From Candidatus Stahliibacteriota bacterium (GTDB lineage: Bacteria; Hydrothermota; Tepidihabitantia; SM23-42): DNA of 64,000 nt. A program made the position numbers and the translations under genes. How positions within the stretch are numbered: the first letter of the stretch is position 1; every line of letters begins with the position of its first letter. This document shows positions 33,986-50,393 of the stretch, piece after piece. Where the stretch lies: contig JAUWCU010000002.1 of the NCBI GenBank assembly GCA_030609135.1, forward strand, positions 4,798 through 68,797, read 5' to 3'. The notes under the pieces are model-generated. The model worked only from the letters and a program-made list of their open reading frames with translations, was not told the origin of the DNA and did no database searches.

Positions 33986-34492
33986 CTAATTACCTAAGAT
34001 ACCGAGTTTCTTCTTCAAATATGGTATCAAACCATTGTTCGTAACTATCTTTAAAATAAAATCCGGCAGTTTCTTTGCTTTAATGATTTCATTAGTGCGC
34101 ATGTTTTTAATTATACCGATTAGTAGATCAATTTCAATATCATCGTTGTGCTCAACCTGCTGCGTAATCCCCGGCGCGATAATCACTGGCAGACCCAAAT
34201 TGATTGCATTCCTGTAGAAAATCCGGGCAAAGGTTTCCGCAACAACCGCTCTGACACCAAAATACTTAAGGCAAGTGGCGGCTTGCTCACGGGATGAACC
34301 GCAGCCGAAGTTCTTGCCGCCGACTATGATATCACCGGGATTTGCATTTTTCAGGAATTCAGGATGGACCGCTTCAAAACAATGCTTTGCCATTTCCTCG
34401 CGATCTGCAGTAATAGATAGATACTTACCCGGATAGATCACGTCAGTATTTATATTGTTGCCGAATTTGTATACATGTCCCTTAATCAACAT
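33986..34492 (-). CDS. leuD: Aconitase-family small subunit (3-isopropylmalate dehydratase LeuD-type)
   Basis: NTDVIYPGKYL...GKNFGCGSSREQA signature of LeuD/HacB small subunits. Confidence 0.85.
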   Translation of the reverse strand: MLIKGHVYKFGNNINTDVIYPGKYLSITADREEMAKHCFEAVHPEFLKNANPGDIIVGGKNFGCGSSREQAATCLKYFGVRAVVAETFARIFYRNAINLGLPVIIAPGITQQVEHNDDIEIDLLIGIIKNMRTNEIIKAKKLPDFILKIVTNNGLIPYLKKKLGILGN

Positions 34493-35742
34493 GGTTCAGT
34501 TATCTCCCCTTTCAGCGCTGAAGCCGCCACGGTCCCCGGTGAAGCCAGATAAACAAAAGCTTCCGGACTGCCCATCCGCCCCTTAAAATTGCGATTTGTC
34601 GTTGCCAGACAAATTTCTTCAGGAGCAAGTAAACCCTGATGTGCACCGAGGCAAGGTCCGCAACCTGGATTCAATACAAGTCCACCGGCTCGGACAAAAA
34701 TCTCAATATAGCCTTTATGTAGAGCCTCAAGATAGACTCTGCGTGAAGCCGGGATCACTAATAACCGGGTGTCTGGATGTACTGTTTTACCCTCTAAAAT
34801 CTCGGCTGCGGCAGCCAAATCTTCTAATCTCCCATTAGTACACGACCCGATTAATGCCTGGTCAATCTTTAGGCCGGTTATTTCACTGACCGGTTTGACA
34901 TTGTCAACTGAATGTGGACAGGCAACTTGACTCGTTAAGCTACTGACATTGATATTCAATTCACCACTATATTCAACATCTTGATCAGGTAAGATAACCT
35001 GGAAATGTTTATCGGTCCTCTTTTTTAGATACGCTATGGTTTGTTCATCCGGGGGCACAAACGCGACTTTTGCCCCCATTTCCATAGGCAGATTGGAAAG
35101 AACCATACGTGATGCGATAGTCATATGAGATATTGTTTCACCATGGAATTCTACTGCCTGGTAATTGGCACCATCCGCACCCAATATCCCGATAATATGC
35201 AAGATAAGATCCTTTGCCGTTACACAAGGTTTGAATTTCCCATCCACATTAATCTTTATTGATTCCGGTACGCGCAACCATAGTTCTCCGGTTGCCCAAA
35301 CGCCAGCCATTTCCGTAGCCCCAATTCCGGTTGCAAAAGTGCCAAAAGCACCATGTGTAGTTGTATGAGAATCAGTGCCTACTAAGACCTCGCCAGGTAA
35401 ATCATGCCCCAATTCCGCTAAAACCTGGTGACAAATCCCTTGTCTCAAATCATAGAAGTACTTGATCTGCTGTTCTTTTGCAAATGTCCGTAAACGACGA
35501 TGAGTAGCTGCGGTCCTTTCACTATCTGCAGGTATACGGTGATCGAATAGTATGACAATTCTCTCCTTATCCCAAACTTTTTTAACACCGATTTCTTTAA
35601 ACGATCTTAACACAACATCGGCATTTTCATGGGACATAGCCACATCAACTCTTGCCATAACAATTTCGTTAGGCGATACTACTTTTTTACCTGACGCTCT
35701 GGCTAAGATTTTTTCAGCAATCGTTTTATTCATAGAAATCAT
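34486..35742 (-). CDS. leuC: Aconitase-family large subunit (3-isopropylmalate dehydratase LeuC-type, short archaeal-type form)
   Basis: Fe-S cluster ligands and motifs VGTDSHTTTHGA, GSCTNGRLEDL, NPGCGPCLG. Alternative start at Met4 (MNKTIAEKIL). Confidence 0.85.
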   Translation of the reverse strand: MISMNKTIAEKILARASGKKVVSPNEIVMARVDVAMSHENADVVLRSFKEIGVKKVWDKERIVILFDHRIPADSERTAATHRRLRTFAKEQQIKYFYDLRQGICHQVLAELGHDLPGEVLVGTDSHTTTHGAFGTFATGIGATEMAGVWATGELWLRVPESIKINVDGKFKPCVTAKDLILHIIGILGADGANYQAVEFHGETISHMTIASRMVLSNLPMEMGAKVAFVPPDEQTIAYLKKRTDKHFQVILPDQDVEYSGELNINVSSLTSQVACPHSVDNVKPVSEITGLKIDQALIGSCTNGRLEDLAAAAEILEGKTVHPDTRLLVIPASRRVYLEALHKGYIEIFVRAGGLVLNPGCGPCLGAHQGLLAPEEICLATTNRNFKGRMGSPEAFVYLASPGTVAASALKGEITEPC

Positions 35743-35832
35743 TGTAGTCGCTCAATTCATTGAGCAGCCTGATAAATCCCGCAATCCTGTTTGTAGAATT
35801 ATAATACGAAGCGGGATAAATCAGGCAACTAC
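35743..35832. mobile_element. MITE-like repeat, copy 5 (full length), immediately abutting the leuC start codon
   Basis: TGTAGTCGCTCAATTCATTGAGC ... GCCTGATAAATCCCGC...GCGGGATAAATCAGGCAACTAC. The left terminal inverted repeat begins 1 nt after the leuC ATG (35740-35742). Confidence 0.6.
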
Positions 35833-35865
35833 GTTTTTGAAAATCAGATTCATCAAAAGCGTTTA

Positions 35866-36063
35866 ATCCGTCCCTTCGGTGATCTGGTTCATTTAGGTAT
35901 TTAGGCATTTTGGATTTTAGGTATTTGCTTTTTCTCCGGTACACCGTTACTCCCTTACGCCGTTTCCCCCAGTCTCCTTGTCCCCTTATCTTCAAAGATC
36001 CCCTGATCTCCTGACCCCACGTGTCTCCATGTCTCCGTTTCTCCATTTCTCTGTTTCTCCGTT
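35866..36063. repeat. Mosaic repeat modules plus five tandem octamers (GTKTCTCC / reverse-complement GGAGAMAC) ending at the ccl stop codon
   Basis: 35876-35985 share about 100 nt with 55195-55300 (gatctggttcatttagg...acaccgt.actccc.tacgccgtttccccc.gtctcc). 36020-36059 = gtgtctcc atgtctcc gtttctcc atttctct gtttctcc. Confidence 0.5.
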
Positions 36064-36828
36064 TCATTTCGTAATGTCCCGCTCCCATGGTCCATCATAG
36101 GTAACTTCTTGTTCACACATACGACGCATAGGCTTCTGCGTCGTCATTTCCTCGTACACATGTGCGATAAGACCAGCACATCGACCAATTAAAAAGAAAG
36201 CTTTACCGAGTTTCCAATCAAACCCCATATCTGATATGATCGCAGCGATTGCTCCATCGACATTTATGGGTAATGCTTTGCCCTCAGCGAATTCTTCTTT
36301 CAGCGCAAGGCTCAGCTTTATATGCTCTTTAGTGATTTTTAAATCATCAGCCATTTCATAGAGCCGTTTGGTTCGGGGGTCGTTTTTATGGAGGCGATGA
36401 CCAAACCCGGGCATGCGTCTACCCTGCTTTTTAAGAGTCTTTAGTAGTGTCTGAGCAGTTCTTTCATAATCCCACTTTTCCTCTTGCCTTTTCTTTACCC
36501 AATTCTGTAAAATGCGTGCACCATCTTCAATTGCTCCACCGTGGACATCACCAACTGCCAAAATCCCTGCAGCAACTGCACTAGGCAAAGGTACACCAGC
36601 TGAGGCAACGATGCGCGCAGCGTGTGTTGAGGGTGGAGTAACACTGTGGTCAATTGAGGAAGTAATGATTGCATCGATCATTTTCGCTTCTTTTTTATCC
36701 GGCATTCTTCCTCTTATCAGAAGAAAAAATACTGAACTAAATGGTATATTACCGATAAGGTCTTCCTGACGATAGCCGCGTGTTACAATATTATCTGGTT
36801 CAACCTTTGAAATCTTTGTTTGCCACAT
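36064..36828 (-). CDS. Citrate-synthase-like short protein, candidate citryl-CoA lyase (Ccl-like; equivalent to the AclA C-terminal domain)
   Basis: 254 aa containing the citrate synthase signature GFGHRLHKNDPR and catalytic His/Asp region but lacking the N-terminal half of a true citrate synthase. Lies directly downstream of SucC/SucD-like genes. Confidence 0.6.
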   Translation of the reverse strand: MWQTKISKVEPDNIVTRGYRQEDLIGNIPFSSVFFLLIRGRMPDKKEAKMIDAIITSSIDHSVTPPSTHAARIVASAGVPLPSAVAAGILAVGDVHGGAIEDGARILQNWVKKRQEEKWDYERTAQTLLKTLKKQGRRMPGFGHRLHKNDPRTKRLYEMADDLKITKEHIKLSLALKEEFAEGKALPINVDGAIAAIISDMGFDWKLGKAFFLIGRCAGLIAHVYEEMTTQKPMRRMCEQEVTYDGPWERDITK

Positions 36829-36944
36829 AATTGTTCCTCCAAATACCTAAAGTTGTGGGAGAGCCTTTCCAGGCTCGATTTTCGCGGGCAGCCCGCCCCC
36901 AAATATTTTTCCATAGCTTCTTGCCATTAATCGCCTTCTTTGCC

Positions 36945-37841
36945 TTATCCTGGCTTCTCCTGCCTTTTTCTGTCTTCTAAAGCCCTTTTCACAAGTATCG
37001 GTATCTCGCTCAGTGTTTGCGCAAGTATTGCGCCGTGCTTTTGTAAAGCTTCAATTTTGCCATGAGCAGTACCCATATTACCCTCAATGATCGCACCAGC
37101 ATGACCGAGCCGCTTACCTTGAGGTGCTGCTTTACCTGTTATATAAGCAATAACTGGTTTTAACATATGTTCAATAAAAGGAGCTGCTAATTCTTCATAA
37201 ACCCCACCGATTTCACCGGCCATCACAACCGCATCGGTCTCAGGGTCATTTTCAAACAATCGTAATATGTCCTCGTAGTTTGCTCCCAGGATTGGATCCC
37301 CACCCAGACCAACTGAAGTCGATTCACCAAAGCCAGCAAGGTTTAGAGAATTTGCCAAATAATATGTCACGGCGCCGCTGCGTGCAATCGTACCTATGCG
37401 TCCGGGTTTAAAGGTAATTTTTGGGAGCATACCAACGAGTGCCTTACCTGGTGAAATTACACCTGGCGTATTGCCTCCTATAACGACGACACCCTTTTCT
37501 TTGGCTTTCTGGCGTGCGTATAGCATATCGTGAATTGGGATGCATTCAGTTATTACAATGACCGTTTTAATACCGGCATCAATTGCCTCAAGTATTGCAT
37601 CCTTTGCAAAACGTGGCGGTACCCAAATGCTTGACACAGCAGCATCCGGATGTTTTTCCAAACACTGGTGTACAGTATCATACACTCTTACACCTTCAAC
37701 TTCCTGACCACCTTTGCCCGGCGTCACACCACCAGCGATCTTTGTCCCGTATTCGAGCATGAACTTTGTATGGAGTGATGCATTTTTTCCAGTAATCCCC
37801 TGGACTATCGTTTTCGTTTCATTATCAATAACAATACTCAT
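36945..37841 (-). CDS. Succinyl-CoA synthetase alpha-subunit-like protein (candidate citryl-CoA synthetase small subunit / split AclA N-domain)
   Basis: CoA-binding Rossmann N-domain and the phosphohistidine loop GHAGAII. Confidence 0.7.
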   Translation of the reverse strand: MSIVIDNETKTIVQGITGKNASLHTKFMLEYGTKIAGGVTPGKGGQEVEGVRVYDTVHQCLEKHPDAAVSSIWVPPRFAKDAILEAIDAGIKTVIVITECIPIHDMLYARQKAKEKGVVVIGGNTPGVISPGKALVGMLPKITFKPGRIGTIARSGAVTYYLANSLNLAGFGESTSVGLGGDPILGANYEDILRLFENDPETDAVVMAGEIGGVYEELAAPFIEHMLKPVIAYITGKAAPQGKRLGHAGAIIEGNMGTAHGKIEALQKHGAILAQTLSEIPILVKRALEDRKRQEKPG

Positions 37842-37846
37842 TGTTA

Positions 37847-39079
37847 TTATTCCTTATCTGCGCAATCTGTGTCCGCCTCTGGCGGATTTTCTGTGTCAAT
37901 CTGTGTCTTGGCCACCCGGATCGTTTCCTTAATCACTTGCTCAATAGGTGTATCAACCGCATATATCTTGATTTTTTTGAATAGCTCTGGAAAATTTCTT
38001 TTTGCTTGTTCCAGTATTTTTCTGCCCTGCTCTTCCATATTACCGGCCATCCTCATGATCATCGGTTTTTCAGGTTTGTTTTCCTTTACATATTGCACTA
38101 TTGCCCTTGCCCAATCATCACACCGAGAAATGCCTCCAAAACGGGCACCGAATATAGCTTTCACTTTAGGGTTATCAACAAGCAATCCAAGCATAGCCCG
38201 GAGCTTTTCTTGAGTCGGAGCACCACCTGAATCCATAAAGTTAGCCGGTTTTCCTTGATAAAGTGTTATCAAATCTATCGCCGCAATGCCAAAACCAGCA
38301 CCTCCGGGGAATACACCGATATCACCATCAAGATCCACATAAGGGATACCTTTCGCCTTAGCTATTTGTTCGCGTTGGGTCAACTCCCCGAGCTCGTGCC
38401 TTGCCACAATACCCATTTCTTTGAGTTCTCGGTGCTTAAACATAGCATCTTCGTCAAGGTCAATTTTGGCATCGAGCGCATAAATGTTTCCGTCTTTTGA
38501 TAAAACCAGCGGGTTAATTTCAACTAACTTACAATCAAAGCCTAAGAAAAGTTTGTACACCTTCAAGATAATACCCGCAACTATCCCTAACCCATCACTC
38601 GAGAATCCCAAATCACCTGATATAGTTCTTGCCTTAAAACCATGCATTATTTCACCTGGATTAAAGTAATACTTTAATAATGCACCAGGATCGTCTTTAG
38701 TAATTGCTTCTATGTCCACGCCGCCTTTTTTGCTCGCCATAAATAAGAGCTTATGCTCGAGCCGATCGATCAATGCAGCAATATATACTTCTCTTTCAAT
38801 ATTTATTTTCTTCTCCAGGAGAACTTTCTCAATGACAAATGGACCATGCTTCTTACCTAAAATTGAGCATATCATGGCCTCAGCCTCTTCTCTACACTCG
38901 GCAAATTGAACAAGCCCAGCTTTGCCCCGGCCGCCTAAAAACGCCTGTCCTTTAATAACCACCGGATAGACGACCTTATCCAGCTCATTGAAGCTATCCC
39001 TACTGATGACAACTGACTCGGGTACTGGTATCATGTACTTTCTGAATAGTTTTTTTGCTTCGAATTCGTATAATCTCAT
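37847..39079 (-). CDS. Succinyl-CoA synthetase beta-subunit-like ATP-grasp protein (candidate citryl-CoA synthetase large subunit / AclB-like)
   Basis: The ATP-grasp N-terminus MRLYEFEAKKLF..GGRGKAG parallels SucC; the C-terminal CoA-ligase domain differs from the canonical SucC glycine-rich loop. Confidence 0.7.
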   Translation of the reverse strand: MRLYEFEAKKLFRKYMIPVPESVVISRDSFNELDKVVYPVVIKGQAFLGGRGKAGLVQFAECREEAEAMICSILGKKHGPFVIEKVLLEKKINIEREVYIAALIDRLEHKLLFMASKKGGVDIEAITKDDPGALLKYYFNPGEIMHGFKARTISGDLGFSSDGLGIVAGIILKVYKLFLGFDCKLVEINPLVLSKDGNIYALDAKIDLDEDAMFKHRELKEMGIVARHELGELTQREQIAKAKGIPYVDLDGDIGVFPGGAGFGIAAIDLITLYQGKPANFMDSGGAPTQEKLRAMLGLLVDNPKVKAIFGARFGGISRCDDWARAIVQYVKENKPEKPMIMRMAGNMEEQGRKILEQAKRNFPELFKKIKIYAVDTPIEQVIKETIRVAKTQIDTENPPEADTDCADKE

Positions 39080-39150: not shown

Positions 39151-39660
39151 CTATTTTGATCTTTCTATATCAAAATCTATAAAATCGCAGTGATGTATAA
39201 TTACAGCTTCATTAGAACGCTTCACCTTCTCGCCTTCAACTGAATGGGCTGCCACGATGTGGGCAACTTCAATGGGCAAACCAGCATCAAGGGTTAAACC
39301 ATATCCTGCTACTGGATGCCGAATAAGTTTACCAAAACTGGACTTAGTGTATTTTTTACCAAGCTTTTTGTATTCAAGTAATTTCCCGACGTCATGGACC
39401 AACCCGCCGGCAATAATGTGGTCTATTTTAACATCCTGGCGTTTACCTGCTACTGCTATTGCCATACGCGTAACTGCCCTGGTATGTTCAACGAGTGTCT
39501 TTTTTGTCTTGATGAGCAGAGTAAACGGTATTTTGTCAATTCTCTGCCACTTGCCTTTTTTCATAGCTAATAGCCATACTGCGATAACGCCTTCGCGAAG
39601 TGATTTACTTGTTATCTTTTCAATCTCAGGAAATAGCTTTATTATGTATTTTTTATCCAT
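39151..39660 (-). CDS. HD-domain phosphohydrolase
   Basis: HTRAV...GGLVHDVGK HD motif; 169 aa. Confidence 0.7.
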   Translation of the reverse strand: MDKKYIIKLFPEIEKITSKSLREGVIAVWLLAMKKGKWQRIDKIPFTLLIKTKKTLVEHTRAVTRMAIAVAGKRQDVKIDHIIAGGLVHDVGKLLEYKKLGKKYTKSSFGKLIRHPVAGYGLTLDAGLPIEVAHIVAAHSVEGEKVKRSNEAVIIHHCDFIDFDIERSK

Positions 39661-39798: not shown

Positions 39799-42700
39799 CT
39801 ACTGCCCGGACAGAGGCTGTACCAAAACGTCGTCGTAATCAGTCACCATACCCTCTTGTTCCAAGACCCCAATACCAATACCTCCATTGATAAATGGATT
39901 ATCATTGTCCGTATAGCTAATTCGAAGGCTGTCATTCAAGTAGCCTTTAATCTGATGAGGTTGGGATTGAATTTCAACCTTGAGGTTGTACCAGACATTT
40001 TGCTCGGGCTTGAAAGGATAGCTTGCGAGGAATATCCAAATTCCGTTGACTCGTTTGTAAAGGTCAATGCAACCTGCATCACCATGAATGCCGAAGCGGT
40101 AGTAATTCAAATCATCCTGTACCCGGAAAAAGACGTATGATTTCAACCAAGACACACTAGCACTACCTATTATTCTGGTCCTAACCTGATATTGGTAATT
40201 CGTCCAGTCGCAAGCCTCAGCCACGGTGGCAAAATGCGTGCTGCCGCTACCCCGGGCAAAACTAGGTTCTTCGGGCGGAACGAACCATGTTCCTTGGCGT
40301 TTGTTCCATAGGGTATCCATCACACCACTATCAAAGTTGTCAGCGAACAATGTATCTGGTGGTTCGAGCGGACGCACGACAATGTCATCGTAATAGTTGG
40401 TCATATTGCCTTCAGTAATACCGATGCCGATACCACCATACTGATATTTTGTGTCATTGGCAGTAATTACTTGCTTACCATTGAAGAAACAACGAATCCA
40501 ATTGCCCTGAACCTTAACCGCAAGATTGTACCAGCTGTCCTTCTGGGGTTGAAAATCATAAGTACCAAGCCTTGTCCATCCATGTAAGCTATCGCGTCGA
40601 TAGAGCACGAGCCTTGGTTCATCTCCCTTTATTCCGTATCTGTAGTACTGAGTGTCATTTTGGACACGGAAGAAAACATAAGATTTGAGATACGGTATAT
40701 CCGGATGAGTACTTCCCGCCATTTTAGTATTGACCTGAAAACGGTAATTGGTCCATCCTTCATCACCCGCACCGACTGTGGCAAGGTAAGAAGAATAATT
40801 CCCACTGCCTTTTGCACTGCTGTCCTCAACCGACCACGCATTTGGATCATCCCATTTATACCATTGACTACTCATTGAACCAGAATTAAAATCGTCATAG
40901 AAAATATCTCCGGGTAATGGTCTCATTGCCCGGTTAACCTGCTCTGTAATACTACCAACCGTATCACTGTTACTAATAGCGGTTATGTAGAGGGTACCGA
41001 CAGTATCTTTTAATTCTAAAAATACTTCAACTTCTTTGGTTCCATGTCCGGGGAGTGTAACCGGATTGTTCCCAATGAATGCTATCTCTCCATGTCCTTG
41101 TGTAAATGCTCCAGTCAAGGTAACAGACATCGTATCAGTTGTGTTGTTTATCAAAGTCAATGGAAAGCTATCACCAGTCGGAAACTTTATGAATAAATCT
41201 TCGGGTAGCTCAAGGCTCACCGGGTCATAAACCCATACTGTAAACAATGTTGAATCATCTGGCGTCGGGCTAGTATTAATCACCCAGAAAGTATCTTCAC
41301 CAAGGGGATGGGTATCTGGGATTGTAAAATCATATTGAATCTCCCGAACTTCACACTGACGCAGCCAAAAAGTACGAAAAGAGCAATTCCCAAATGGTGT
41401 GGTGATTAGCAACGCGTATTGTTTAGAGCCGAACTCAAGATTCTGAACCCGGAGTTTGAATTTTCCAGCCTTACCTTGGCAGAGCACTGGTGAAGACATC
41501 GATGAATATTCGTACCTCGGTTCCTGACTGAGCCGAACAAGTGCGGAAACCATGTGTTCGGGCACATTAAGCATATCCATGGCAGTAGGATCGTAATAGA
41601 CCCATCTTGGTCCAAAATAATCTCCTGACAAAACATAACAATGATCATACGTGCCTAATCCGGGGAACATTATTTTAACACCCAGATTGTATCTAAATGG
41701 ATCCATGCTGACTTGTGACCTATCCATGTTCACCATTGGAATAAGCAAGTCATTATCTGGGATTTTAAAAATATTGCCTTTAATATCTGCAGGCAGTCGT
41801 AGAGCATGGGCATTAAGTACCCATGTCTTACCCTTATACAAATTAAAAAGAGGTTGATACTTAAGGTCTATTAAGCGACTTAAGGGTTCATCTACATTAG
41901 CCTCAAGGCTTGGATAAAGTCCACCATACAAAGCAGTCTTGTCCTTGGTTTCGGTCTCACTAGCTAATGTGTCAATGACAAAAAGTATTAAAGGGCGGGA
42001 TAGACCAAGATACTGCAGACAACTTACTACTTCAGGATGTCTTTCAACCATGATTCCATCGATGTTTTTACATACCTCCACGCTTGTGGGCCCATTGGCT
42101 AAAATGCCTTTGTTACGATTATGCACCTCTCTACAGATTTTTTCATTTATTTCTTCCAGCGCAAATCCAAGCATATAGACAGGAGTAGTATTAATCATGG
42201 TCACGCTATCGTTGTGAGCGTAATCATAATAGTGGTAATCATCCCGGTCATAGAAGATACCTGCCGCTGGAAAACTATCTAAAACAGCCGTTATCTGAGT
42301 GTCGATGTATGCCGCCCAGGAACGTTCACCCGGGGGATAAAAGGACAAAAGATTCGTGTCCGGATTCATAAGTCGGCATGCTTGAAAAGCTTTAAGGGGA
42401 TTTCCATCCTGATCTTTCGCAAGAGATGAATCAAAAGGAAAAGGTATTGTGTCATTATATACCCAACTTTTCCATGCCTCCATAGACTGAGTATATGGAT
42501 ATGAACCAATCTGATGATCATTAAATAAATTCATAATGTACGTAATGGTATCGTAGGTATAATAATCATTGCCGGCGTGTCGAAGCCAATATTTATAAGT
42601 CGTAGTGCTATCTCCATCTCTTATGCCCAGCCATTTGAAACGGTCCTGGGGTACATAGAGGCCAAAAAATGCCTTGTTGTGATAGTATTCTTCCCATTTT

Positions 42701-43905
42701 ACTCCGAATATTTGACAGGTATCTATTTTTTCCAGCTCACCAAATGTCCAGGAACCTGCTATGAAGAATCGTCCTTCATAGTCTTGTATTTGGGAACTGT
42801 CATGAGGTGTAAAATATTCTGGATACCGTGTTTGCATATAGGCAAGCCCTGGTCGCCAGTCGCCTTCATGAGGGACAAGATACAATGAAGTCTGGGCAGC
42901 CTGGCTCTGCGGTACGTACATTTGCATATAATTGTATGAGACCCTAAAAGTATCGGAAGCAGGGGTTTTTCTTAATTTAAATTGCAGTCGCGGTTTTTTC
43001 ACTTCAAATGGGCAGATAAAAGATACACCATAATCCAAAGTGGTATCATATAGAGTTACAGACGGCAAAATGCAGAAATTCTCACGATAGATGATTGTTT
43101 TATTGAAGTAGTCTTCGATGAAATACGGTGCATTGGCATCAGCCCAGAACGCATATTGCATTGTATCAAGAAGCGGTAAAGAAAAATCCAGACGCAATGA
43201 GCGTCTTGTCGGATTCTCAATATTGAGCCAGACATGATTATCCCAACGTAATCCGAGTGTATCCATTGTATAACTAACCAGTGCCTGATGATTCGGAAAA
43301 TTAATTTGAAAGCTGATCATCCCCTGTGTGGGAGTATTAACCGTGTCAATATAAACTAAGGAATCAACATCCTCATCTTGCAGATATTCCTGACTTATCA
43401 GCGTGTCCCGGAATACTATTTGTCCTGGCTCATTAGCTGAGAGCAACCCACTATGACCTTTTACTGTCAGACCGCGTATCACGCCTGTTTGCCTCCAGAA
43501 TATCACCTCCATGTGGATGTTGCGTAATATGATTAAGGTATCATTACTCTCGAATTCCACTTTCACCAGCTCAACTTCACCCATATTCACCGGTCCGATT
43601 TCAGGGTCATAAGTAATAACCTTGTTTCTAAAATATGAACCATATTCAAAATGAACATCATACTTACCTGCAGGAAGTGCACCGAACCGAGAAGCATGAA
43701 AATAACCATCTCCATACATCGGATGATGATAACTTACTGTATCAAGCACAATGCTCGTGTCGTTTTGATACACCGCCTTGATGTGGACTCCATTGGTTCT
43801 TACACCCTCTACCTTGGTAAAACCGTAGCAAAGTGTTTCTGCATAAGCAGTTTGCACAGCGCCCAGGCAAAACAATGCTACTATGAGTGACAAAATGTTC
43901 TTCAC
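39799..43905 (-). CDS. Large secreted protein (1368 aa) with two tandem C-terminal DUF1080/LamG-like jelly-roll domains
   Basis: Signal peptide MKNILSLIVALFCLGAVQTAYA. The last ~340 aa are two ~170-aa repeats (...W.NY.....K.YVFFRVQ.D..YYR.GI.GD...L.R...G.W..L..Y.F.P...WYNL.V..Q.....Y...D..........GGIGIG...). No recognisable catalytic motif in the N-terminal 1000 aa. Confidence 0.7.
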   Translation of the reverse strand: MKNILSLIVALFCLGAVQTAYAETLCYGFTKVEGVRTNGVHIKAVYQNDTSIVLDTVSYHHPMYGDGYFHASRFGALPAGKYDVHFEYGSYFRNKVITYDPEIGPVNMGEVELVKVEFESNDTLIILRNIHMEVIFWRQTGVIRGLTVKGHSGLLSANEPGQIVFRDTLISQEYLQDEDVDSLVYIDTVNTPTQGMISFQINFPNHQALVSYTMDTLGLRWDNHVWLNIENPTRRSLRLDFSLPLLDTMQYAFWADANAPYFIEDYFNKTIIYRENFCILPSVTLYDTTLDYGVSFICPFEVKKPRLQFKLRKTPASDTFRVSYNYMQMYVPQSQAAQTSLYLVPHEGDWRPGLAYMQTRYPEYFTPHDSSQIQDYEGRFFIAGSWTFGELEKIDTCQIFGVKWEEYYHNKAFFGLYVPQDRFKWLGIRDGDSTTTYKYWLRHAGNDYYTYDTITYIMNLFNDHQIGSYPYTQSMEAWKSWVYNDTIPFPFDSSLAKDQDGNPLKAFQACRLMNPDTNLLSFYPPGERSWAAYIDTQITAVLDSFPAAGIFYDRDDYHYYDYAHNDSVTMINTTPVYMLGFALEEINEKICREVHNRNKGILANGPTSVEVCKNIDGIMVERHPEVVSCLQYLGLSRPLILFVIDTLASETETKDKTALYGGLYPSLEANVDEPLSRLIDLKYQPLFNLYKGKTWVLNAHALRLPADIKGNIFKIPDNDLLIPMVNMDRSQVSMDPFRYNLGVKIMFPGLGTYDHCYVLSGDYFGPRWVYYDPTAMDMLNVPEHMVSALVRLSQEPRYEYSSMSSPVLCQGKAGKFKLRVQNLEFGSKQYALLITTPFGNCSFRTFWLRQCEVREIQYDFTIPDTHPLGEDTFWVINTSPTPDDSTLFTVWVYDPVSLELPEDLFIKFPTGDSFPLTLINNTTDTMSVTLTGAFTQGHGEIAFIGNNPVTLPGHGTKEVEVFLELKDTVGTLYITAISNSDTVGSITEQVNRAMRPLPGDIFYDDFNSGSMSSQWYKWDDPNAWSVEDSSAKGSGNYSSYLATVGAGDEGWTNYRFQVNTKMAGSTHPDIPYLKSYVFFRVQNDTQYYRYGIKGDEPRLVLYRRDSLHGWTRLGTYDFQPQKDSWYNLAVKVQGNWIRCFFNGKQVITANDTKYQYGGIGIGITEGNMTNYYDDIVVRPLEPPDTLFADNFDSGVMDTLWNKRQGTWFVPPEEPSFARGSGSTHFATVAEACDWTNYQYQVRTRIIGSASVSWLKSYVFFRVQDDLNYYRFGIHGDAGCIDLYKRVNGIWIFLASYPFKPEQNVWYNLKVEIQSQPHQIKGYLNDSLRISYTDNDNPFINGGIGIGVLEQEGMVTDYDDVLVQPLSGQ

Positions 43906-44003
43906 GCTATCCTCCTTTCCCCTTACTTTAATCGTTCGACTGAGATCACGTCGAAGTCCTCTCCCCTATGGGGAGAGGGAAGGGTGAGGGGAGTCAAGAT
44001 TCC

Positions 44004-45401
44004 CTATTTCATCTTCACAACCCGCACAGGCTTGAAACTCTTGTCTTCAGGGATGAAAAAATAAACCCCGGCAGAAAGACCAAAACCGATTTTATCCCCA
44101 GAATAACTACCAACCTGTCTCCCCATGATATCATAGAGAATAAAGTGTTCCCTTTCACAACCGAGAGCGGATGCAAAAGAAACAAATGGATTAGGAACAA
44201 CTTGTAAATTTGACGTGTAAGGTCGATGCCAAGCACTATTATTATCCTCGATCCCTGTATTTCCATCCGCATCGGTTTTGACAAGATAAACCTGACGCTG
44301 ATTTCCGAATGAATACGTAAACCCGGCGATGATATACCCACCATCTGTGGTCTGCTGGACAGAGTAGCTGCCATCGTTGGAGTTCCCGCCGTAGCATCTT
44401 ATCCATTGATCATTACCAAGAGAATCGATCTTTGCTACGTAGGCACTACCAAGCCCGAGAGCATCGGTATATCCTGCAACGATATACCCTCCATCAGTAG
44501 TCTGCTGAATACAAAATCCCTGTTCATAACCCTGACCTGATATCACCCCATACCCTCTGGTCCACAAAGTATCCCCGAGAGAATCAGTCTTTATGAGATA
44601 GACATCTTCATTGTTACTCGATATATACCAGTAGTATCCCGCGATGATATATCCACCATCTGTGGTCTGCTGGACAGAGTAGCCTTCTTGTACATTCGCA
44701 ACTCCTCTTTGGTATCTCCCTGTCCAGAGTGTATCACCAAGAGAGTCGGTCTTCACCAGGTAGACATCGTTTCCTATCATCCCCGCTGCAATATAACCCC
44801 CATTCTGCGTCTGCTGAACTGAATAGCCATTGTCATCGAAATTTCTAGTCCATAGAGTATCTCCGAGAGAGTCGGTTTTGATAAGGATAAAGTTACCTTG
44901 ACGGTCACAATAATCCCACCAATAAGGACCGCCAACAATAATATACCCTCCATCAGTAGTCTGCCGAACACAATTCCCACATGAGGCACCTCCATATGTT
45001 TTAGTCCATAAAGTGTCTCCAAGAGAATCGATTTTAACAAGATAAATATGTTCATTATTTCCAAAAGAAGTAGTGTAACCGGTGATGATATAGCCTTCAT
45101 CAACGGTTTGCTGGACAGAGTAGCCCCAATCTCTCCCTGTCCCTCCATAGATCTTAGCCCAGAGCGTATCTCCGAGAGAATCGGTCTTCACCAGGTAGAT
45201 CTGGTCGCTATCTCCATAAGAACTAGTATATCCTACCACTATATAGCCACCATCTGTGGTTTGGTCTACAGAACGACCTTCCTCATAGCCCGCCCCTCCA
45301 TAGTTCCTCTCCCACATCAGTTGAGAAAAACCTGTGCCTGCAAAGACCATGACAAGCAGCACCCAGAGCACAAGCCGAAGTGGATTAAAATCTTTTTCCA
45401 T
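44004..45401 (-). CDS. SBBP beta-propeller-repeat surface protein with a T9SS-type C-terminal sorting domain
   Basis: Signal peptide, then about 9 repeats of ...GG.G.D.GYSVQQTTDGGYIIAGYT.S.G....YLVKTDSLGDTLW...; the C-terminus ...GVYFFIPEDKSFKPVRVVKMK resembles Por-secretion CTDs. Confidence 0.7.
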   Translation of the reverse strand: MEKDFNPLRLVLWVLLVMVFAGTGFSQLMWERNYGGAGYEEGRSVDQTTDGGYIVVGYTSSYGDSDQIYLVKTDSLGDTLWAKIYGGTGRDWGYSVQQTVDEGYIITGYTTSFGNNEHIYLVKIDSLGDTLWTKTYGGASCGNCVRQTTDGGYIIVGGPYWWDYCDRQGNFILIKTDSLGDTLWTRNFDDNGYSVQQTQNGGYIAAGMIGNDVYLVKTDSLGDTLWTGRYQRGVANVQEGYSVQQTTDGGYIIAGYYWYISSNNEDVYLIKTDSLGDTLWTRGYGVISGQGYEQGFCIQQTTDGGYIVAGYTDALGLGSAYVAKIDSLGNDQWIRCYGGNSNDGSYSVQQTTDGGYIIAGFTYSFGNQRQVYLVKTDADGNTGIEDNNSAWHRPYTSNLQVVPNPFVSFASALGCEREHFILYDIMGRQVGSYSGDKIGFGLSAGVYFFIPEDKSFKPVRVVKMK

Positions 45402-45794: not shown

Positions 45795-46307
45795 TTATTC
45801 ATTATGGTTTTTCTTCTTCAGATAATCAAGTAAGCCGCCCGCCTTCATGATTTTCATTTCAAGCGGTGTAATAGCGATGCCTTGATAAACCTTATTCTGT
45901 GATAAATTAGTGATTTTACCATTTTCAATGTTAACCTCAAGCCGGTCTTTCTGTTCAATCTCCCCGGTTCTATCAAATAGCACAATCGGTAAACCAGTAT
46001 TAACCGCATTTCTATGGAATATCCTGGCAAAAGACCTGGCGATCACAAGAGAAACACCAATACCATGGATACCTACAGTCGCATGCTCACGTGAAGAACC
46101 GCAGCCGAAATTCTTGCCGGCTACAATAATATCACCCGGTTCCACGTTTTCTATGAATTCTTCCCCGCCAGGCGCGCCTTCCATAGCATGGAGCGCCATT
46201 TCCTGCTTGTCAGTAATGGGCAGATACTTACCCGGATATATCTGGTCAGTATCAATATCATCTCCAAAGCACCATACCTTTCCTTTAATTATCACATTAC
46301 ACCTCAC
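45795..46307 (-). CDS. Aconitase-family small subunit, second copy (LeuD-type)
   Basis: DTDQIYPGKYL...GKNFGCGSSREHA. Confidence 0.85.
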   Translation of the reverse strand: MRCNVIIKGKVWCFGDDIDTDQIYPGKYLPITDKQEMALHAMEGAPGGEEFIENVEPGDIIVAGKNFGCGSSREHATVGIHGIGVSLVIARSFARIFHRNAVNTGLPIVLFDRTGEIEQKDRLEVNIENGKITNLSQNKVYQGIAITPLEMKIMKAGGLLDYLKKKNHNE

Positions 46308-47592
46308 GTGGATCAGTAATGACTCCTGTCAAAGCAGTCGCGGCAGCGGTTGCTGGCGATGCAAGAAAAACTTTAGCACCTTGACCGAGCTTGCCTATGA
46401 AATTACGATTTGAAGTAGAAACCATTACTTCACCAGGTGCAAGAATACCAGGGTGTCCAGTCGTACACAGTGCACAACCCGGGTTGGTCACCACGGCGCC
46501 AGCATTTATAAAAATGTCGTACAAGCCTTGTTTCAGTGATTTTTTTGCTACTTCCATGGTTGCTGGCACAATAATTAAACGCATACCAGGTTTAATTTTA
46601 TTCCCTTTTAATATTTGTGCAGCGATATTCAAATCCTCAAATCTACCATTAGTACAAGAACCTATGAAAACCTGATCAACCTCAGTCTTGGCAATATTTT
46701 TAACATCCTTTACATTATCCGGTGAATGGGGACAGGCGATCTGGGGTTGCAGATCATCGATATTGAATTCATGTATTTCTTCGTATACAGCATCTGAGTC
46801 AGGTTCAATTGTTTCAACCTTTTCTTTAGTCCTCGTTTTGATATAATCCAAAATCTCATGGTTAGGCTGTATAAAACCGATATCTCCAGACATCTCGGTT
46901 ACCATACTTGCCATTGTTATACGTTCAGCAAGATTCAAATGGTCGATTGTCTGACCAGAGAATTCGACTGCCCGGTTGAGCGCACCGTCAGTCTTCAATG
47001 TCTTGAGTAGAAAAAGTATTATATCTTTTGCCGTAACGAACTTCTTTAGTTTACCAGTAACTTCAATCTTGATCGTTGGTGGTATACGAAAATATAACTC
47101 ACCCTTGTACATTGCGCCGGCAATATCGGTTGTGCCCATACCAAACCCTGCAGCACCGACCCCACCAAGCAGATTCATATGACTATCAGTACCAACAATA
47201 ATATCCCATGGTTTTGCCAAACCGTTTTCAAAAAGAATATGCTGACCAATACCTGTATCGATGTCAAAGAGTTTTACACCTTGACGAGCAGCAAATTCCC
47301 TCAAGAATTTTTGATTTACCGCGACTTTCTCGTCACGAGCAGGGATATGAAGGTCAAAAGTTATCACTACTTTTCTATTATCAAATACCGACTGTTCACC
47401 AAACTTGTTCTGATATTCCTGGATAACATTTGGTCCGCCAAAATCGCGCATCGCTACAAGATTCAATTTCGCCCAGATATATTCACCTGGTTTAACATCT
47501 TTACCTGCCGCGCGTGCAAAAATCTTCTCAATGATTGTCATGGCTTTGCCAAGCTTACAAAATCCAAGTTCCAAGAACCAAGAGTTAAGCAC
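46297..47592 (-). CDS. Aconitase-family large subunit, second copy (LeuC-type)
   Basis: VGTDSHMNLLGG, GSCTNGRFEDL, NPGCALCTTGH Fe-S cluster motifs. Confidence 0.85.
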   Translation of the reverse strand: MLNSWFLELGFCKLGKAMTIIEKIFARAAGKDVKPGEYIWAKLNLVAMRDFGGPNVIQEYQNKFGEQSVFDNRKVVITFDLHIPARDEKVAVNQKFLREFAARQGVKLFDIDTGIGQHILFENGLAKPWDIIVGTDSHMNLLGGVGAAGFGMGTTDIAGAMYKGELYFRIPPTIKIEVTGKLKKFVTAKDIILFLLKTLKTDGALNRAVEFSGQTIDHLNLAERITMASMVTEMSGDIGFIQPNHEILDYIKTRTKEKVETIEPDSDAVYEEIHEFNIDDLQPQIACPHSPDNVKDVKNIAKTEVDQVFIGSCTNGRFEDLNIAAQILKGNKIKPGMRLIIVPATMEVAKKSLKQGLYDIFINAGAVVTNPGCALCTTGHPGILAPGEVMVSTSNRNFIGKLGQGAKVFLASPATAAATALTGVITDPREV

Positions 47593-48073: not shown

Positions 48074-49165
48074 TTACAATTTCTCTGCAATGGCTTCTGC
48101 CATTTCTAAGCTCGTCGCCTCACCGCCCATATCATACGTTTTGGTTTTTCCTTCCTCGATAACCTGGGCAACCGCTTTCTCGAACCGGTCCGCAGCAGCG
48201 TGTTCGCCAAGCCATTCAAGCATCATTTTAGCAGCAAGGATTGTTGCGATCGGGTTTACCTTATACATACCAGCATATTTTGGCGCTGAGCCGTGGGTCG
48301 GTTCAAAAACTGCATAGCTGTCACCAATATTACCGCTCGAGCCAAAACCGAGACCCCCGGTCATCTGCGCACATAAATCAGAAATAATATCACCATATAG
48401 GTTGGGTGCAACCAGAATGTCGTAGTTAAATGGTTTCTTAAGCAACCACTGACAAAGAGAATCAACATTCGCATTATCAGCTTCAATACCAGGGTAGTCT
48501 GCAGCAACCTGATCAAATTTTTCAAGGAATAAACCATCTGTTGCTCTCACGACATTTGCCTTATGGACACACGTAACCTTTTTCCTTTTGTGCTTTTGTG
48601 CAAAATCAAAAGCTGCTCGGACAATCCTCTCGCACCCTTTGGGCGTATTGACCTTCACAGAAATAGCTGCATCCCTGGCTACATTTTCCATTCCCTTGAT
48701 CGACAACATTTCTACAGGAACTTGATTATACTCAATGCCCGAGTACAGATCTTCAGTATTCTCCCGAAAAATGACAAAATCAATACCCTCTTTAAAGTTC
48801 AGTGGGTTACCTTTATACGCCTTACACGGACGTTTGCATATGTATAAATCAAACTTCTGACGCATTCGCACAATCGGACTTCGGTAAACCAAACCTTTGT
48901 TTCTTAAGCTTGGTACGAGTTCAGTATCGGCAATACTCTTTGGTTTTGAAGTTATTGCACCGAACATCGCACAATCAGTACTCCTCATTAGTTCAACAGT
49001 TCGCTTAGGCAGAGGCTCGCCTTCTTTGCACCAGAATTCCCAACCTACATCACCATGTATGTATTGAGCATCAAGACCAATTCTATCAAGGACGATTCTT
49101 GTTGCGTCGAGAACATCCTTTCCTATACCATCACCAGGTAACCAGGCAATCTTATATTTTGCCAT
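48074..49165 (-). CDS. Beta-decarboxylating dehydrogenase of the isocitrate/homoisocitrate/3-isopropylmalate dehydrogenase family (HICDH-like subgroup)
   Basis: FGAITSKP (compare GAATSP of Thermus homoisocitrate dehydrogenase), DLYICKRP, FVIFRENTEDLYSGIE, NLYGDIISD, HGSAPKYAGMYKVNP (Icd-like APKYAG rather than the LeuB APDIAG). Confidence 0.8.
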   Translation of the reverse strand: MAKYKIAWLPGDGIGKDVLDATRIVLDRIGLDAQYIHGDVGWEFWCKEGEPLPKRTVELMRSTDCAMFGAITSKPKSIADTELVPSLRNKGLVYRSPIVRMRQKFDLYICKRPCKAYKGNPLNFKEGIDFVIFRENTEDLYSGIEYNQVPVEMLSIKGMENVARDAAISVKVNTPKGCERIVRAAFDFAQKHKRKKVTCVHKANVVRATDGLFLEKFDQVAADYPGIEADNANVDSLCQWLLKKPFNYDILVAPNLYGDIISDLCAQMTGGLGFGSSGNIGDSYAVFEPTHGSAPKYAGMYKVNPIATILAAKMMLEWLGEHAAADRFEKAVAQVIEEGKTKTYDMGGEATSLEMAEAIAEKL

Positions 49166-49277: not shown

Positions 49278-50393
49278 TTATACTATCCCCTCATATATGC
49301 GGTATTTTTTGTAGAGCTTACCACCCATTTTTGTAACAGCATTGTTGGTCGGGTGGTTATCCTCAAGTACCCATGATAGCTCACCTGCATTGTAGCCGAG
49401 CTGCTGAGCGGCTCGAAAAGACTCAAGGAAAAGTAATGACTCTAAACCCATTTTTCTGTACTGCTTGCGTACACCCATGATTATCATACGCGCGTCTTTT
49501 ATTTTCTTTTTGTAATACAGGAATTTCAGCATCTCAATAGGCCCCAATCGTCCGTTCAGTTTTTTTAGAACCGTATTGTAATTCGGTACAGCAAGCGAGA
49601 CTGCTACTGGAACACCGTCTATTTCTATGATCGGCACCAACTCCGGGATAATCAATGATTTCATATTCTCGGCAAAGGCACTTATTTCCTCATCAGTCAT
49701 CGGTACAAAGCCCCAATTACGGCTCCACGCATCATTATAGATCTCTTGTATTTTCTTTACTTCATTTTCAAAGTCAGCAACATTAATCGGTCTGACCTTC
49801 ATATCATGTACTCGTCTCCGTACAATAGAACAAATTCTTTCCAGATATTCAAAGGGTGCATCTTTCATATCACAGTAATACGCAAAGAGATCTTTGGTTT
49901 TCTTAAGCCCGCACTTTTTTATCAAATCATCGTAATACTCATAATTGTAAGGCATCATTATAAAAGGCGTTGTATAAAAACCCTCAATCAGAACTCCACA
50001 TTCATTATTAGTCGATGGATTCAAAGGACCGATGTATTTGGTGATATTTTTGTCACTAAGATATTCCTTTACATGTTCAAAAAGGGCTTTTCCTGCATCT
50101 TCATCATCATCACACTCAAAGAACCCAAAATATGCTGTCTTTTCATCCCAGAATTCCATGAAGTTATAGTCAATAATCGCGCATATCCTCCCGGACAACT
50201 GTTTATCCCGGTAGACAAGAAACAATTCCTTTTCAGCATGGCTCCAGAACGAATTCTTTGTTTTATCAAAGAGATTACGTACCTCACGTTTAAGCGGAGG
50301 CACCCAATAGCGATTTTTTTTATACAATTTAAAAGGAAGGTTTATAAAATCCTTCAGTTCTTTTTCGGTTTTTACAGGAACTACAGTAATCAT
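49278..50393 (-). CDS. GNAT-fold N-acyltransferase-family protein (about 370 aa)
   Basis: N-terminal MITVVPVKTEKELKDFINLPFKLYKKNRYWVPPL... family commonly annotated as GNAT N-acetyltransferase; C-terminal acyl-CoA N-acyltransferase-like core; co-transcribed with the alpha-oxoamine synthase (stop/start overlap at 50393). Confidence 0.5.
   Translation of the reverse strand: MITVVPVKTEKELKDFINLPFKLYKKNRYWVPPLKREVRNLFDKTKNSFWSHAEKELFLVYRDKQLSGRICAIIDYNFMEFWDEKTAYFGFFECDDDEDAGKALFEHVKEYLSDKNITKYIGPLNPSTNNECGVLIEGFYTTPFIMMPYNYEYYDDLIKKCGLKKTKDLFAYYCDMKDAPFEYLERICSIVRRRVHDMKVRPINVADFENEVKKIQEIYNDAWSRNWGFVPMTDEEISAFAENMKSLIIPELVPIIEIDGVPVAVSLAVPNYNTVLKKLNGRLGPIEMLKFLYYKKKIKDARMIIMGVRKQYRKMGLESLLFLESFRAAQQLGYNAGELSWVLEDNHPTNNAVTKMGGKLYKKYRIYEGIV

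Follow-up and report, generated by a model that had tools for sequence, protein, structure and literature searches.

Can a bacterium from a lineage regarded as fermentative interconvert citrate with acetyl-CoA and oxaloacetate in an ATP-coupled manner, and if so, which of its proteins form and cleave citryl-CoA? The question is raised by a 64-kb stretch of contig JAUWCU010000002.1 from a Candidatus Stahliibacteriota bacterium (hereafter, the window). Its minus strand encodes the two subunits of an ADP-forming acyl-CoA ligase (SucC' and SucD') and a short protein of the citrate-synthase fold (Ccl); the same gene array includes two pairs of aconitase-family proteins (LeuC1/LeuD1 and LeuC2/LeuD2), a beta-decarboxylating dehydrogenase, and a protein with an HD domain. 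The three-polypeptide set, comprising a beta-type ATP-grasp subunit, an alpha-type phosphohistidine subunit, and a lyase of about 250 residues, resembles the citryl-CoA synthetase (CCS; CcsAB) and citryl-CoA lyase (CCL; Ccl) of Hydrogenobacter thermophilus, reportedly described by Aoshima et al. in 2004 and represented by structures PDB 6hxq and 6hxp. Our preferred reading, to which we assign a probability of about 40% on the basis of sequence comparisons, is that SucC'D' and Ccl would catalyze a two-step, ATP-coupled conversion, citrate ⇌ acetyl-CoA + oxaloacetate, in a heterotroph, by a system analogous but not homologous to CCS/CCL. The original prediction, which proposed a CCS/CCL-like or split ATP-citrate lyase (ACL) module within a reverse tricarboxylic acid (rTCA) segment, was partly supported. 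Open reading frames (ORFs) were assigned by using Pfam and NCBIfam profiles and PDB sequence searches, and the family matches of the cluster proteins had E-values of 1e-45 to 1e-177, far past chance.

Identification of a citryl-CoA lyase family member

The ccl gene (36064-36828, minus strand) encodes 254 residues in which a Citrate_synt domain covers profile positions 162-355 of 357 and the citrate-synthase signature reads GFGHRLHKNDPR. The protein scored 308.5 bits against NF004866 (cut-off of 245) and 291.9 bits against NF004869 (cut-off of 212). Its best PDB match was H. thermophilus Ccl (6hxp; 224 bits, E = 2e-65), compared to approximately 70 bits each for the ACL C-domain and the citrate synthases, and its sequence identity was 47% to H. 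thermophilus Ccl and 27% to Escherichia coli GltA. The window protein and 6hxp share an internal deletion corresponding to GltA residues ∼101-216. When the two were compared using the active-site residue list of PMC13147460, seven of eight citrate-synthase residues were found to be kept, with GltA H229, H264, H305, R314, D362, F383, and R387 corresponding to H61, H96, H144, R152, D191, F212, and R216 of Ccl; the eighth, GltA R407, is not kept in any Ccl that was aligned, 6hxp included. Judged by these features, the 254-residue protein is a genuine citryl-CoA lyase family member, as had been suspected. A truncated gltA remnant was ruled out by the family-wide length (thousands of homologues possess 250-260 residues), the kept catalytic residues, and the passing of the Ccl hidden Markov model cut-offs.

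A divergent ligase of the succinyl-CoA synthetase family

The beta subunit, SucC' (410 residues; 37847-39079, minus strand), contains ATP-grasp_2 and Ligase_CoA domains, and the alpha subunit, SucD' (298 residues; 36945-37841, minus strand), contains CoA_binding and Ligase_CoA domains with the phosphohistidine loop GHAGAII, read in the ORF as GKRLGHAGAIIEG. The sucD' gene starts 5 bp past the stop codon of sucC', and ccl follows as a separate ORF after a 116-bp spacer. Inspection of the minus-strand ORFs confirmed the previously listed genes, their coordinates, and both signatures.

By sequence, SucD' is a conventional succinyl-CoA synthetase (SCS) alpha subunit. It scored 367 bits against TIGR01019 (cut-off of 353.2) and 361.8 bits against NF004230 (cut-off of 336), it shares 54% identity with E. 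coli SucD, and in PDB searches it reached 326 bits with the SCS alpha subunit of Methanocaldococcus jannaschii versus 173 bits with CcsB (6hxq_A) and 103 bits with AclA. SucC' fell below both SCS-beta cut-offs (342.2 vs. 375.55 bits for TIGR01016 and 325.7 vs. 370 bits for NF001913), and its PDB scores were 233 bits for the SCS beta subunit of Thermus aquaticus, 117 bits for CcsA (6hxq_B), and 84 bits for AclB. SucC' is 32-37% identical to SCS beta subunits and 28% identical to CcsA; for reference, CcsA is 31-36% identical to SCS beta subunits, and identity between the SCS beta subunits of E. coli and T. aquaticus is 47%.

Three motifs, PGGAGFGI, SGGAPT, and ARFGGISRCD, are strictly kept in the alignment of SucC' with its closest homologues. 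The first, within the clade feature VFPGGAGFGIAA, replaces the xNGAGLAM of SCS and the FGGGGS of CcsA, and the second corresponds to GGGA in SCS and GGNPP in CCS. The clade also has an insertion of its own, the short GIVARHELGELTxRE. At the position of FGGISRCD, a segment shared with SCS, H. thermophilus CcsA has GGTANNT and ligase pairs from the candidate phyla radiation (CPR) have GGVANFT, both variants of GG(S/T)xAN(F/N)T. In the human ACLY-citrate structure, the Asn and Thr that bind citrate lie in this segment. The second CCS/ACL-type segment is FGGGGS in CcsA and SGGGAS in the CPR pairs. The Asn-to-Gly change within NGAGLAM was considered as a specificity marker and rejected, as this position also varies among ordinary SCS-beta representatives, and a literature search for succinate-site residues of SCS found nothing.

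When 1.84 billion representative proteins were searched with SucC', its motifs were present in just 3 of the 150 best matches (P0241, 59% identity; P0242, 45%, both full-length; and P0243, 50%, partial). The other full-length matches among these 150 were at most 41% identical, and those with a readable motif were of the ordinary SCS type. SucC' thus appears, from these comparisons, to represent a discrete SCS-derived clade whose distance from SCS equals that of CcsA and which is limited to WOR-3/TA06/Zixibacteria-type genomes. PGAP names its members succinate--CoA ligase, ATP-grasp protein, or acetate--CoA ligase family protein. Compared to SucCD, the subunit architecture is the same, the alpha subunit passes the SCS cut-offs, and the beta subunit keeps FGGIxRCD; the differences are the beta subunit's low scores, its own motifs and insertion, and its separate clade.

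The proposal that the pair represents CcsAB or a split ACL was not borne out. Orthology to either CcsAB or AclAB was ruled out by the PDB scores, the identities, and the absence of the CCS/ACL-type motif, so that the likeness is one of analogy and not of homology. With the AclAB enzyme of Chlorobium (PDB 6hxj), the module shares the overall domain inventory and the presumed overall reaction, but it lacks the fusion of alpha subunit and lyase found in AclA (∼600 residues), and its scores are low throughout (Ccl, 70 bits).

Gene order in WOR-3 and TA06 genomes

The named sources of close Ccl and SucC' homologues are candidate division WOR-3, Candidatus Stahlbacteria, and TA06. We compared 16 loci from these groups, whose SucC' proteins are 64-93% identical, reading the gene order as far as the contigs reach. 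The conserved order is purB, a kbl-like gene, a gene encoding 371 residues, the isocitrate dehydrogenase (IDH)-like gene, (a four-helix-bundle gene), leuC2, leuD2, the HD gene, sucC', sucD', ccl, leuC1, leuD1, trkA, a TPR gene, and the DUF366 gene. The predicted linkage of the ligase pair, ccl, and an aconitase-family pair was retained in 16 of 16 loci; the sucD'-ccl gap is 55-210 bp in every case, an HD homologue adjoins sucC', and leuC1 follows ccl throughout. In several relatives (L010, L011, L012, and L015) the ccl-leuC1 gap is below 40 bp, which suggests co-transcription.

The only difference in order that is peculiar to the window is a 5.6-kb insertion (39799-45401, minus strand) of two genes between the HD gene and leuD2. 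It is absent from L002-L017 and L045, including the closest relative (L002), where leuD2 is followed directly by the HD gene. Across the loci, various further junctions of the array carry four-helix-bundle genes or other inserted sequences. The original prediction had placed the second LeuCD pair and its isocitrate/homoisocitrate dehydrogenase (IDH/HICDH)-type enzyme elsewhere; the pair and the dehydrogenase are indeed present, but they are part of the same cluster, directly upstream of the module in the relatives and parted from it in the window only by this insertion.

No CcsAB, ACL, or CitF gene occurs in the conserved array, in which SucC'D' is the sole acyl-CoA-forming enzyme. Characterized Ccl is not known to form or hydrolyze citrate itself or to hydrolyze citryl-CoA, so Ccl needs a citryl-CoA source or sink; because the array holds no other, SucC'D' is the only candidate partner.

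Ccl and SucC' in other lineages

Related gene combinations were found well beyond these phyla. A Thermoplasmatales locus (L016, 7976-12544) encodes an HD protein (45% identity), CitF, Ccl, and a fused LeuCD-like aconitase-family protein, and a Methanobacteriota locus (L018, 9980-14871) encodes Ccl, an HD protein (51% identity), CitF, and an AMP-forming acetyl-CoA synthetase. CitF thus takes the place of the ligase beside Ccl and HD in these archaea, recalling the citrate lyase CitDEF and its two-step logic of citryl thioester formation followed by cleavage. Classical citrate lyase differs in its acyl carrier protein (ACP)-bound thioester and in its CitE lyase of another fold, and the window is devoid of CitF. 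The archaeal CitF and Ccl, with or without acetyl-CoA synthetase, represent a cleavage design, and the two could form an ACP-free, CitE-free citrate lyase with a lyase of the citrate-synthase fold. Two CPR loci (L043 and L044) encode the SCS-like pair with the GGVANFT motif, followed by Ccl. The Desulfovirgula locus L031 (7504-13489) encodes a divergent SCS-like pair, whose motifs (GAGGGGS and GSGVASQEQ) are of neither the SCS nor the citrate type, along with Ccl. Genes for an amidohydrolase and methylaspartate ammonia-lyase come next, a hint that the role here may be of the citramalyl-CoA type, in the fermentation of glutamate. Ccl thus adjoins a maker of a carboxylic-acid CoA thioester in three independent settings, and the HD and aconitase-family genes also recur.

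In Zixibacteria and Ignavibacteriales, ccl sits with genes for 2-oxoglutarate:ferredoxin oxidoreductase (OGOR) alpha, beta, and gamma subunits, NuoE/NuoF-like proteins, and 2Fe-2S and 4Fe-4S (ferredoxin) proteins (L019, 3076-11675; also L021-L024, L030, L032, and L046). The flanking proteins of 275 and 282 residues, which had no Pfam or NCBIfam match, could be Ccl partners.

A metagenome scan with P0242 yielded 80 loci whose proteins are named Zixibacteria, 29 of them with at least 5 kb of downstream sequence. All three clade motifs were present in 75 of 76 SucC' ORFs. Within this set (L049-L128; for example, L101, 10001-15608, and L051, 7619-14663), the arrangement was aminotransferase, SucC', SucD', asparaginase II (PF06089), HD protein, and beta-eliminating lyase, and a D-2-hydroxyacid dehydrogenase or PrcB-like gene can sit between sucC' and sucD'. 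Of the 29 loci, 14 have a gene for asparaginase II downstream, 11 have one for the HD protein, 9 have one for beta-eliminating lyase, and just 1 has ccl. That one locus (L128) encodes the aminotransferase, SucC', SucD', asparaginase II, Ccl, HD, and LeuC2-like and LeuD2-like proteins; elsewhere in the set, an aconitase-family gene lies near HD in L074 and an IDH-like gene occurs in L049. The Zixibacterial context of SucC'D' looks like an amino-acid catabolic island. These data clearly cut both ways: the gene set re-associates across phyla, yet SucC' needs no adjacent ccl and keeps to amino-acid catabolic surroundings in which an ordinary SCS that yields ATP might also be expected.

Succinyl-CoA synthetase as the alternative

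Several observations weigh against citrate as the substrate of the ligase and against the pathway built on it. SucD' scores above the SCS-alpha equivalog cut-offs, and SucC' has kept FGGISRCD where CCS has GG(S/T)xAN(F/N)T. Zixibacterial SucC' is beside ccl in only 1 of the 29 loci with sufficient downstream sequence and 1 of 80 overall, so that an exclusive ligase-Ccl linkage is not supported; its SucC'D' instead keeps company with a class-III aminotransferase (often preceding sucC'), asparaginase II, HD, and beta-eliminating lyase, and its ccl lies with the OGOR genes. The nearest outgroup ccl genes (L013 and L014; 61-65% identity) stand alone, as does that of Methanobacterium, whose Pst/PhoU-containing neighborhoods were uninformative. 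Both LeuD specificity loops lack the Arg present in that of homoaconitase. Finally, the conserved order of about 15 genes takes in unrelated ones (purB, kbl, trkA, and DUF366), so that synteny within the phylum argues only moderately for functional coupling.

SucC'D' might instead be simply the SCS of WOR-3, TA06, and Zixibacteria, making ATP from OGOR-derived succinyl-CoA or activating succinate, with the array being an island of TCA genes. Such a role would fit the OGOR genes that accompany Zixibacterial and Ignavibacterial ccl, which need an SCS, and the common occurrence of kor and sucCD in the WOR-3 metagenome-assembled genomes (MAGs) in the part of the published survey table considered below. 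Ccl would then be served by an unlinked enzyme or by CoA transfer, or would act with its own hydrolysis as a short citrate synthase. This is the main alternative, and we consider it somewhat unlikely: characterized Ccl is not known to hydrolyze citryl-CoA and would still need a partner, of which no other was seen; Ccl repeatedly stands beside CoA-ester-forming enzymes in unrelated lineages; and SucC' scores below the SCS-beta cut-offs, being as divergent from SCS as CcsA is. Under the preferred reading, SucC'D' would have been recruited independently from SCS and may still use succinate too.

The aconitase-family pairs and the dehydrogenase

LeuC1 (34486-35742, minus strand) is the large subunit and LeuD1 (33986-34492, minus strand) the small subunit of an archaeal-type Fe-S hydro-lyase of the isopropylmalate isomerase (IPMI)/homoaconitase family, and their genes overlap by 7 bp. 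LeuC1 passed the subfamily cut-offs of PRK00402 (588 vs. 385 bits), TIGR01343 (hacA_fam; 576 vs. 386), and TIGR02086 (560 vs. 410), but it fell short of the equivalog cut-offs of HacA_Meth (518 vs. 550) and LEU2 (500 vs. 611). Against the aconitase models it reached no more than 108 bits for AcnA (cut-offs of 686-945) and 155 bits for AcnB (cut-off of 782). LeuD1 matched the LEUD_arch model (TIGR02087) with 201 bits (cut-off of 109). The second pair, LeuC2 (46297-47592, minus strand; 44% identical to LeuC1) and LeuD2 (45795-46307, minus strand), was assigned by family matches and alignment of the loop and also passes the archaeal IPMI/homoaconitase subfamily cut-offs; neither pair reached a function-specific IPMI or homoaconitase equivalog cut-off in NCBIfam.

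The closest well-defined relatives are the two-subunit Fe-S hydro-lyases of M. jannaschii, which belong to the same subfamily: the isopropylmalate (IPM)/citramalate isomerase (MJ0499/MJ1277; 3vba) and the homoaconitase (MJ1003/MJ1271; 2pkp). LeuD1 scored 191 bits with 3vba and 145 bits with 2pkp. Identity to the IPM/citramalate isomerase small subunit is 55% for LeuD1 and 54% for LeuD2, and identity to the homoaconitase small subunit is 48% and 50%, respectively. The specificity loops, YLSIT in LeuD1 (kept in its orthologues) and YLP(I/L)T in the LeuD2 type (YLPIT in the window), match neither the YLVYT of IPMI nor the YLRTT of homoaconitase, and the genomic context is Ccl- and IDH-like, unlike the leuA/leuB or aksA/aksF settings of those enzymes. 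In the M. jannaschii homoaconitase, the loop Arg reportedly recognizes a gamma-carboxylate and is analogous to aconitase Arg580. Its absence here, read from the alignment, is evidence against an aconitase-type specificity of the LeuCD pairs, and recognition of a gamma-carboxylate is not supported, the LeuD proteins also being slightly nearer the IPM/citramalate isomerase. A two-subunit LeuCD aconitase is nevertheless plausible; we know of no characterized LeuCD-type aconitase with which to compare it, and a literature search for a two-subunit aconitase found nothing.

LeuCD1 might be no more than the IPMI of the leucine pathway, unrelated to Ccl, in which case any aconitase of the module would be LeuCD2. 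LeuD1 has an authentic IPM/citramalate isomerase subunit as its best solved relative, and it is the LeuC2/LeuD2 type, not LeuC1/LeuD1, that accompanies Ccl and HD in L016 and L128, lies near HD in L074, and adjoins the dehydrogenase gene. We judge this restriction of LeuCD1 doubtful, as LeuD1 is hardly any nearer the IPMI subunit than LeuD2 is, leuA and leuB are not nearby, and the ccl-leuC1 gap is very short in the four relatives named above. If there is an aconitase in the module, LeuCD2 is more likely than LeuCD1 to provide it.

The dehydrogenase (48074-49165, minus strand) is of the IDH/HICDH type. No NCBIfam equivalog cut-off was reached, the best score being 345 bits for AksF2 (cut-off of 540), and the PDB scores were 241 bits for Thermus thermophilus homoisocitrate dehydrogenase, 239 bits for NAD-IDH, and 178 bits for isopropylmalate dehydrogenase (IPMDH). 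Its YRSPIVRMRQ stretch combines an IDH-like Arg-Ser with Ile at the position of IDH Asn115 and one extra Arg; the motif is kept in WOR-3 and reads YRSPIVRLR in the Zixibacteria-type locus L049.

These properties bear on another alternative, in which Ccl and the ligase handle a different acyl-CoA (citramalyl-CoA ⇌ pyruvate + acetyl-CoA, or a homocitrate-type condensation) and the two LeuCD pairs with the dehydrogenase form a 2-oxoacid elongation set. Two hydro-lyases and one dehydrogenase recall pathways with split dehydration and hydration steps, the LeuD loops carry small or hydrophobic residues and the proteins are nearest an IPM/citramalate isomerase subunit, the dehydrogenase is equally near homoisocitrate dehydrogenase and IDH, and the Desulfovirgula SCS-like pair and Ccl adjoin methylaspartate ammonia-lyase. 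We find it improbable, since Ccl keeps all of the oxaloacetate/citrate-binding residues of the characterized enzyme, with which it shares 47% identity, the R-S-x-x-x-R-x-R stretch of the dehydrogenase suits a tricarboxylate, unlike that of IPMDH, and the cluster has no LeuA, CimA, homocitrate-synthase-type, leuB, or alpha-aminoadipate lysine-pathway genes.

A proposed citrate-cleaving route in a heterotroph

In the pathway that we favor, SucC'D' would catalyze citrate + ATP + CoA ⇌ citryl-CoA + ADP + Pi, and Ccl would catalyze citryl-CoA ⇌ acetyl-CoA + oxaloacetate. The aconitase step, for which no other enzyme is apparent, could be supplied by the LeuCD-type Fe-S hydro-lyases, and the dehydrogenase would link isocitrate to 2-oxoglutarate. 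At 1 mM reactants, the ΔrG'm values are -5.9 kJ/mol for CCS and -2.1 kJ/mol for CCL (PMC13147460, Table 1), so that the pair is near equilibrium with cleavage favored; given these energies and the micromolar concentration of cellular oxaloacetate, the ATP-coupled pair should run to cleavage. The direction of flux that we infer is thus 2-oxoglutarate or glutamate to isocitrate, to citrate, and on to acetyl-CoA and oxaloacetate. A possible entry is the reductive carboxylation of glutamate-derived 2-oxoglutarate, which the amino-acid catabolic context in Zixibacteria would fit. ATP-conserving citrate synthesis would be possible only at unusually high oxaloacetate, and an anabolic direction toward 2-oxoglutarate is the alternative.

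The metabolism reported for the lineage provides the setting. Reconstructions of Stahlbacteria MAGs indicated a fermentative metabolism (PMC5569505), published accounts call the lineage fermentative or heterotrophic (PMC5569505; PMC12542636), and the sole WOR-3 isolate is a heterotroph without the key enzymes of the rTCA cycle (PMC12285271). In the part of Table S4 of a 2025 WOR-3 survey considered here (44 MAGs; PMC12542636), AcnA and AcnB are recorded in none of the 44 genomes, 38 of them lack citrate synthase, genes for SucCD, NAD-type IDH (K00030), and Kor are common, and K15234 (ccl) is called in a single MAG. As far as these entries go, the K15234 count implies that KEGG-based pipelines miss this module, and no aconitase is annotated even in those WOR-3 genomes that have IDH; on the same entries, the absence of AcnA/B and citrate synthase means that an unrecognized aconitase and citrate step are needed if the dehydrogenase acts on isocitrate. 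Profile scans of the window revealed no OGOR, pyruvate:ferredoxin oxidoreductase (PFOR), fumarate reductase, citrate synthase, or AcnA/B. The WOR-3 papers found by literature search do not discuss citryl-CoA.

Because the uncultured organism is probably a heterotrophic fermenter, the segment is expected to serve central or amino-acid metabolism rather than CO2 fixation, in which it differs from the rTCA autotroph H. thermophilus; the genomic partners (LeuCD-type hydro-lyases, the HD protein, and the HICDH-like dehydrogenase) also set it apart from CCS/CCL. A citrate-isocitrate-2-oxoglutarate segment is plausible, and not as a sign of autotrophy. That the cluster is the citrate-cleaving end of an autotrophic rTCA cycle, as first proposed, is not supported and strikes us as highly improbable: its CCS/CCL-like domain content, its adjacent aconitase-family and IDH-like genes, the thermodynamics of cleavage, and the survey's record of certain rTCA-type genes from a single WOR-3 subgroup (11 MAGs; a finding that the survey itself qualified with a warning of false positives) stand against the absence of OGOR, PFOR, and fumarate reductase from the 64 kb, the fermentative metabolism of such MAGs and the isolate, a ligase that is no orthologue of CcsAB or ACL, and the known wide distribution of CCL and CCS homologues in non-autotrophs (bioRxiv 10.1101/2022.10.25.513756).

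A more ambitious version of the favored pathway holds that SucC'D' is a third independent citryl-CoA synthetase, or a bifunctional succinate/citrate ligase like the postulated SCS-to-CCS intermediate, and that, joined by Ccl, one or two LeuCD (possibly split) aconitases, an isocitrate dehydrogenase of the HICDH-like kind, and an HD hydrolase dedicated to the pathway, it completes a non-canonical branch between citrate, isocitrate, and 2-oxoglutarate. This is rather unlikely. If true, the branch would stand in for citrate synthase or ACL, for AcnA/B, and for Icd across WOR-3 and TA06, it would occur in dispersed form in Zixibacteria, and it would explain the routine scoring of the TCA cycle in these phyla as incomplete.

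If the ligase acts on citrate, it would show that SCS was recruited a separate time to form citryl-CoA, which bears on the long-standing SCS → CCS → ACL model, it would fill the missing citrate and aconitase steps in reconstructions of WOR-3 and TA06, and it would exemplify heterotrophic use of ATP-dependent citrate cleavage, e.g., with reductive carboxylation of 2-oxoglutarate in amino-acid fermentation. CCS/CCL and ACL serve as rTCA markers in metagenome surveys; the locus, from a candidate phylum of heterotrophs, combines a genuine Ccl with an inconsistently labeled ligase, and marker-based calls can therefore miss or over-interpret the system.

The HD-domain protein

The gene 72 bp upstream of sucC' (39151-39660, minus strand) encodes an HD-domain (HDIG) metal-dependent hydrolase of 169 residues (Pfam HD, 44 bits; TIGR00277). 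Across WOR-3, Zixibacteria, and archaea, SucC'D', Ccl, or CitF has no more constant neighbor than proteins of this kind (170-180 residues), and those encoded downstream of SucD' in Zixibacteria (L051, L100, L101, and L128, for example) are 37-49% identical to it. The invariant residues are H59, H89-D90, H115, H139, H157, and D159. The protein had no PDB relative by sequence, a profile search gave only a weak match to the YhaM HD domain (E = 0.0045), and a single-sequence AlphaFold model (pLDDT of 35) was uninformative. It may have a role in the module, and this recurrent partner and the archaeal CitF/Ccl combination are further leads.

Other features of the window

The window has a G+C content of approximately 41% and carries bacterial marks, including PilB/PilT/PilC, DegP, RseP, and a two-component kinase. 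The spacer between ccl and leuC1 (35743-36063) is purine-rich with repeated GGAGA-type motifs and has no family match; its length ranges from 36 to ∼400 bp across the relatives, and no minus-strand terminator-like site was found in it. A 120-residue ORF (ORF120, 35726-36088) was rejected as a gene, as it has no family match, is of purine-rich low complexity, and is kept only in the close relative L003. A promoter and terminator scan of the 32-50.5 kb region gave counts indistinguishable from those of shuffled sequences. The two genes of the 5.6-kb insertion, identified as specific to the window by comparison with the relatives, encode 1368 and 465 residues; the single recognized domain is a 3-keto-disaccharide hydrolase-like one in the larger protein, and the smaller has no family match.

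A protein of 511 residues with FAD_binding_2 and Succ_DH_flav_C domains is encoded at 16031-17566. It resembles both NadB and the flavoprotein of fumarate reductase; its size makes L-aspartate oxidase (NadB) the likelier of the two, and none of the adjacent genes was identified as encoding an Fe-S subunit. The 371-residue gene product (49278-50393), encoded between the kbl/serine-palmitoyltransferase-like and IDH-like genes, is without a Pfam or NCBIfam match, and its gene is syntenic in every WOR-3/TA06 locus that reaches that far. Between the dehydrogenase gene and leuC2 lies the gene for a four-helix-bundle protein, assigned by its profile match to TIGR02436 (47596-48090, minus strand), which is outside the pathway. 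Copies of such genes occur at differing junctions from MAG to MAG (idh|leuC2, sucC'|sucD', and ccl|leuC1), with examples in L004 (4465-4890), L006 (8492-8923), L009 (3521-3826), and L008 (755-1222) in addition to that in the window, and they behave like small mobile insertions.

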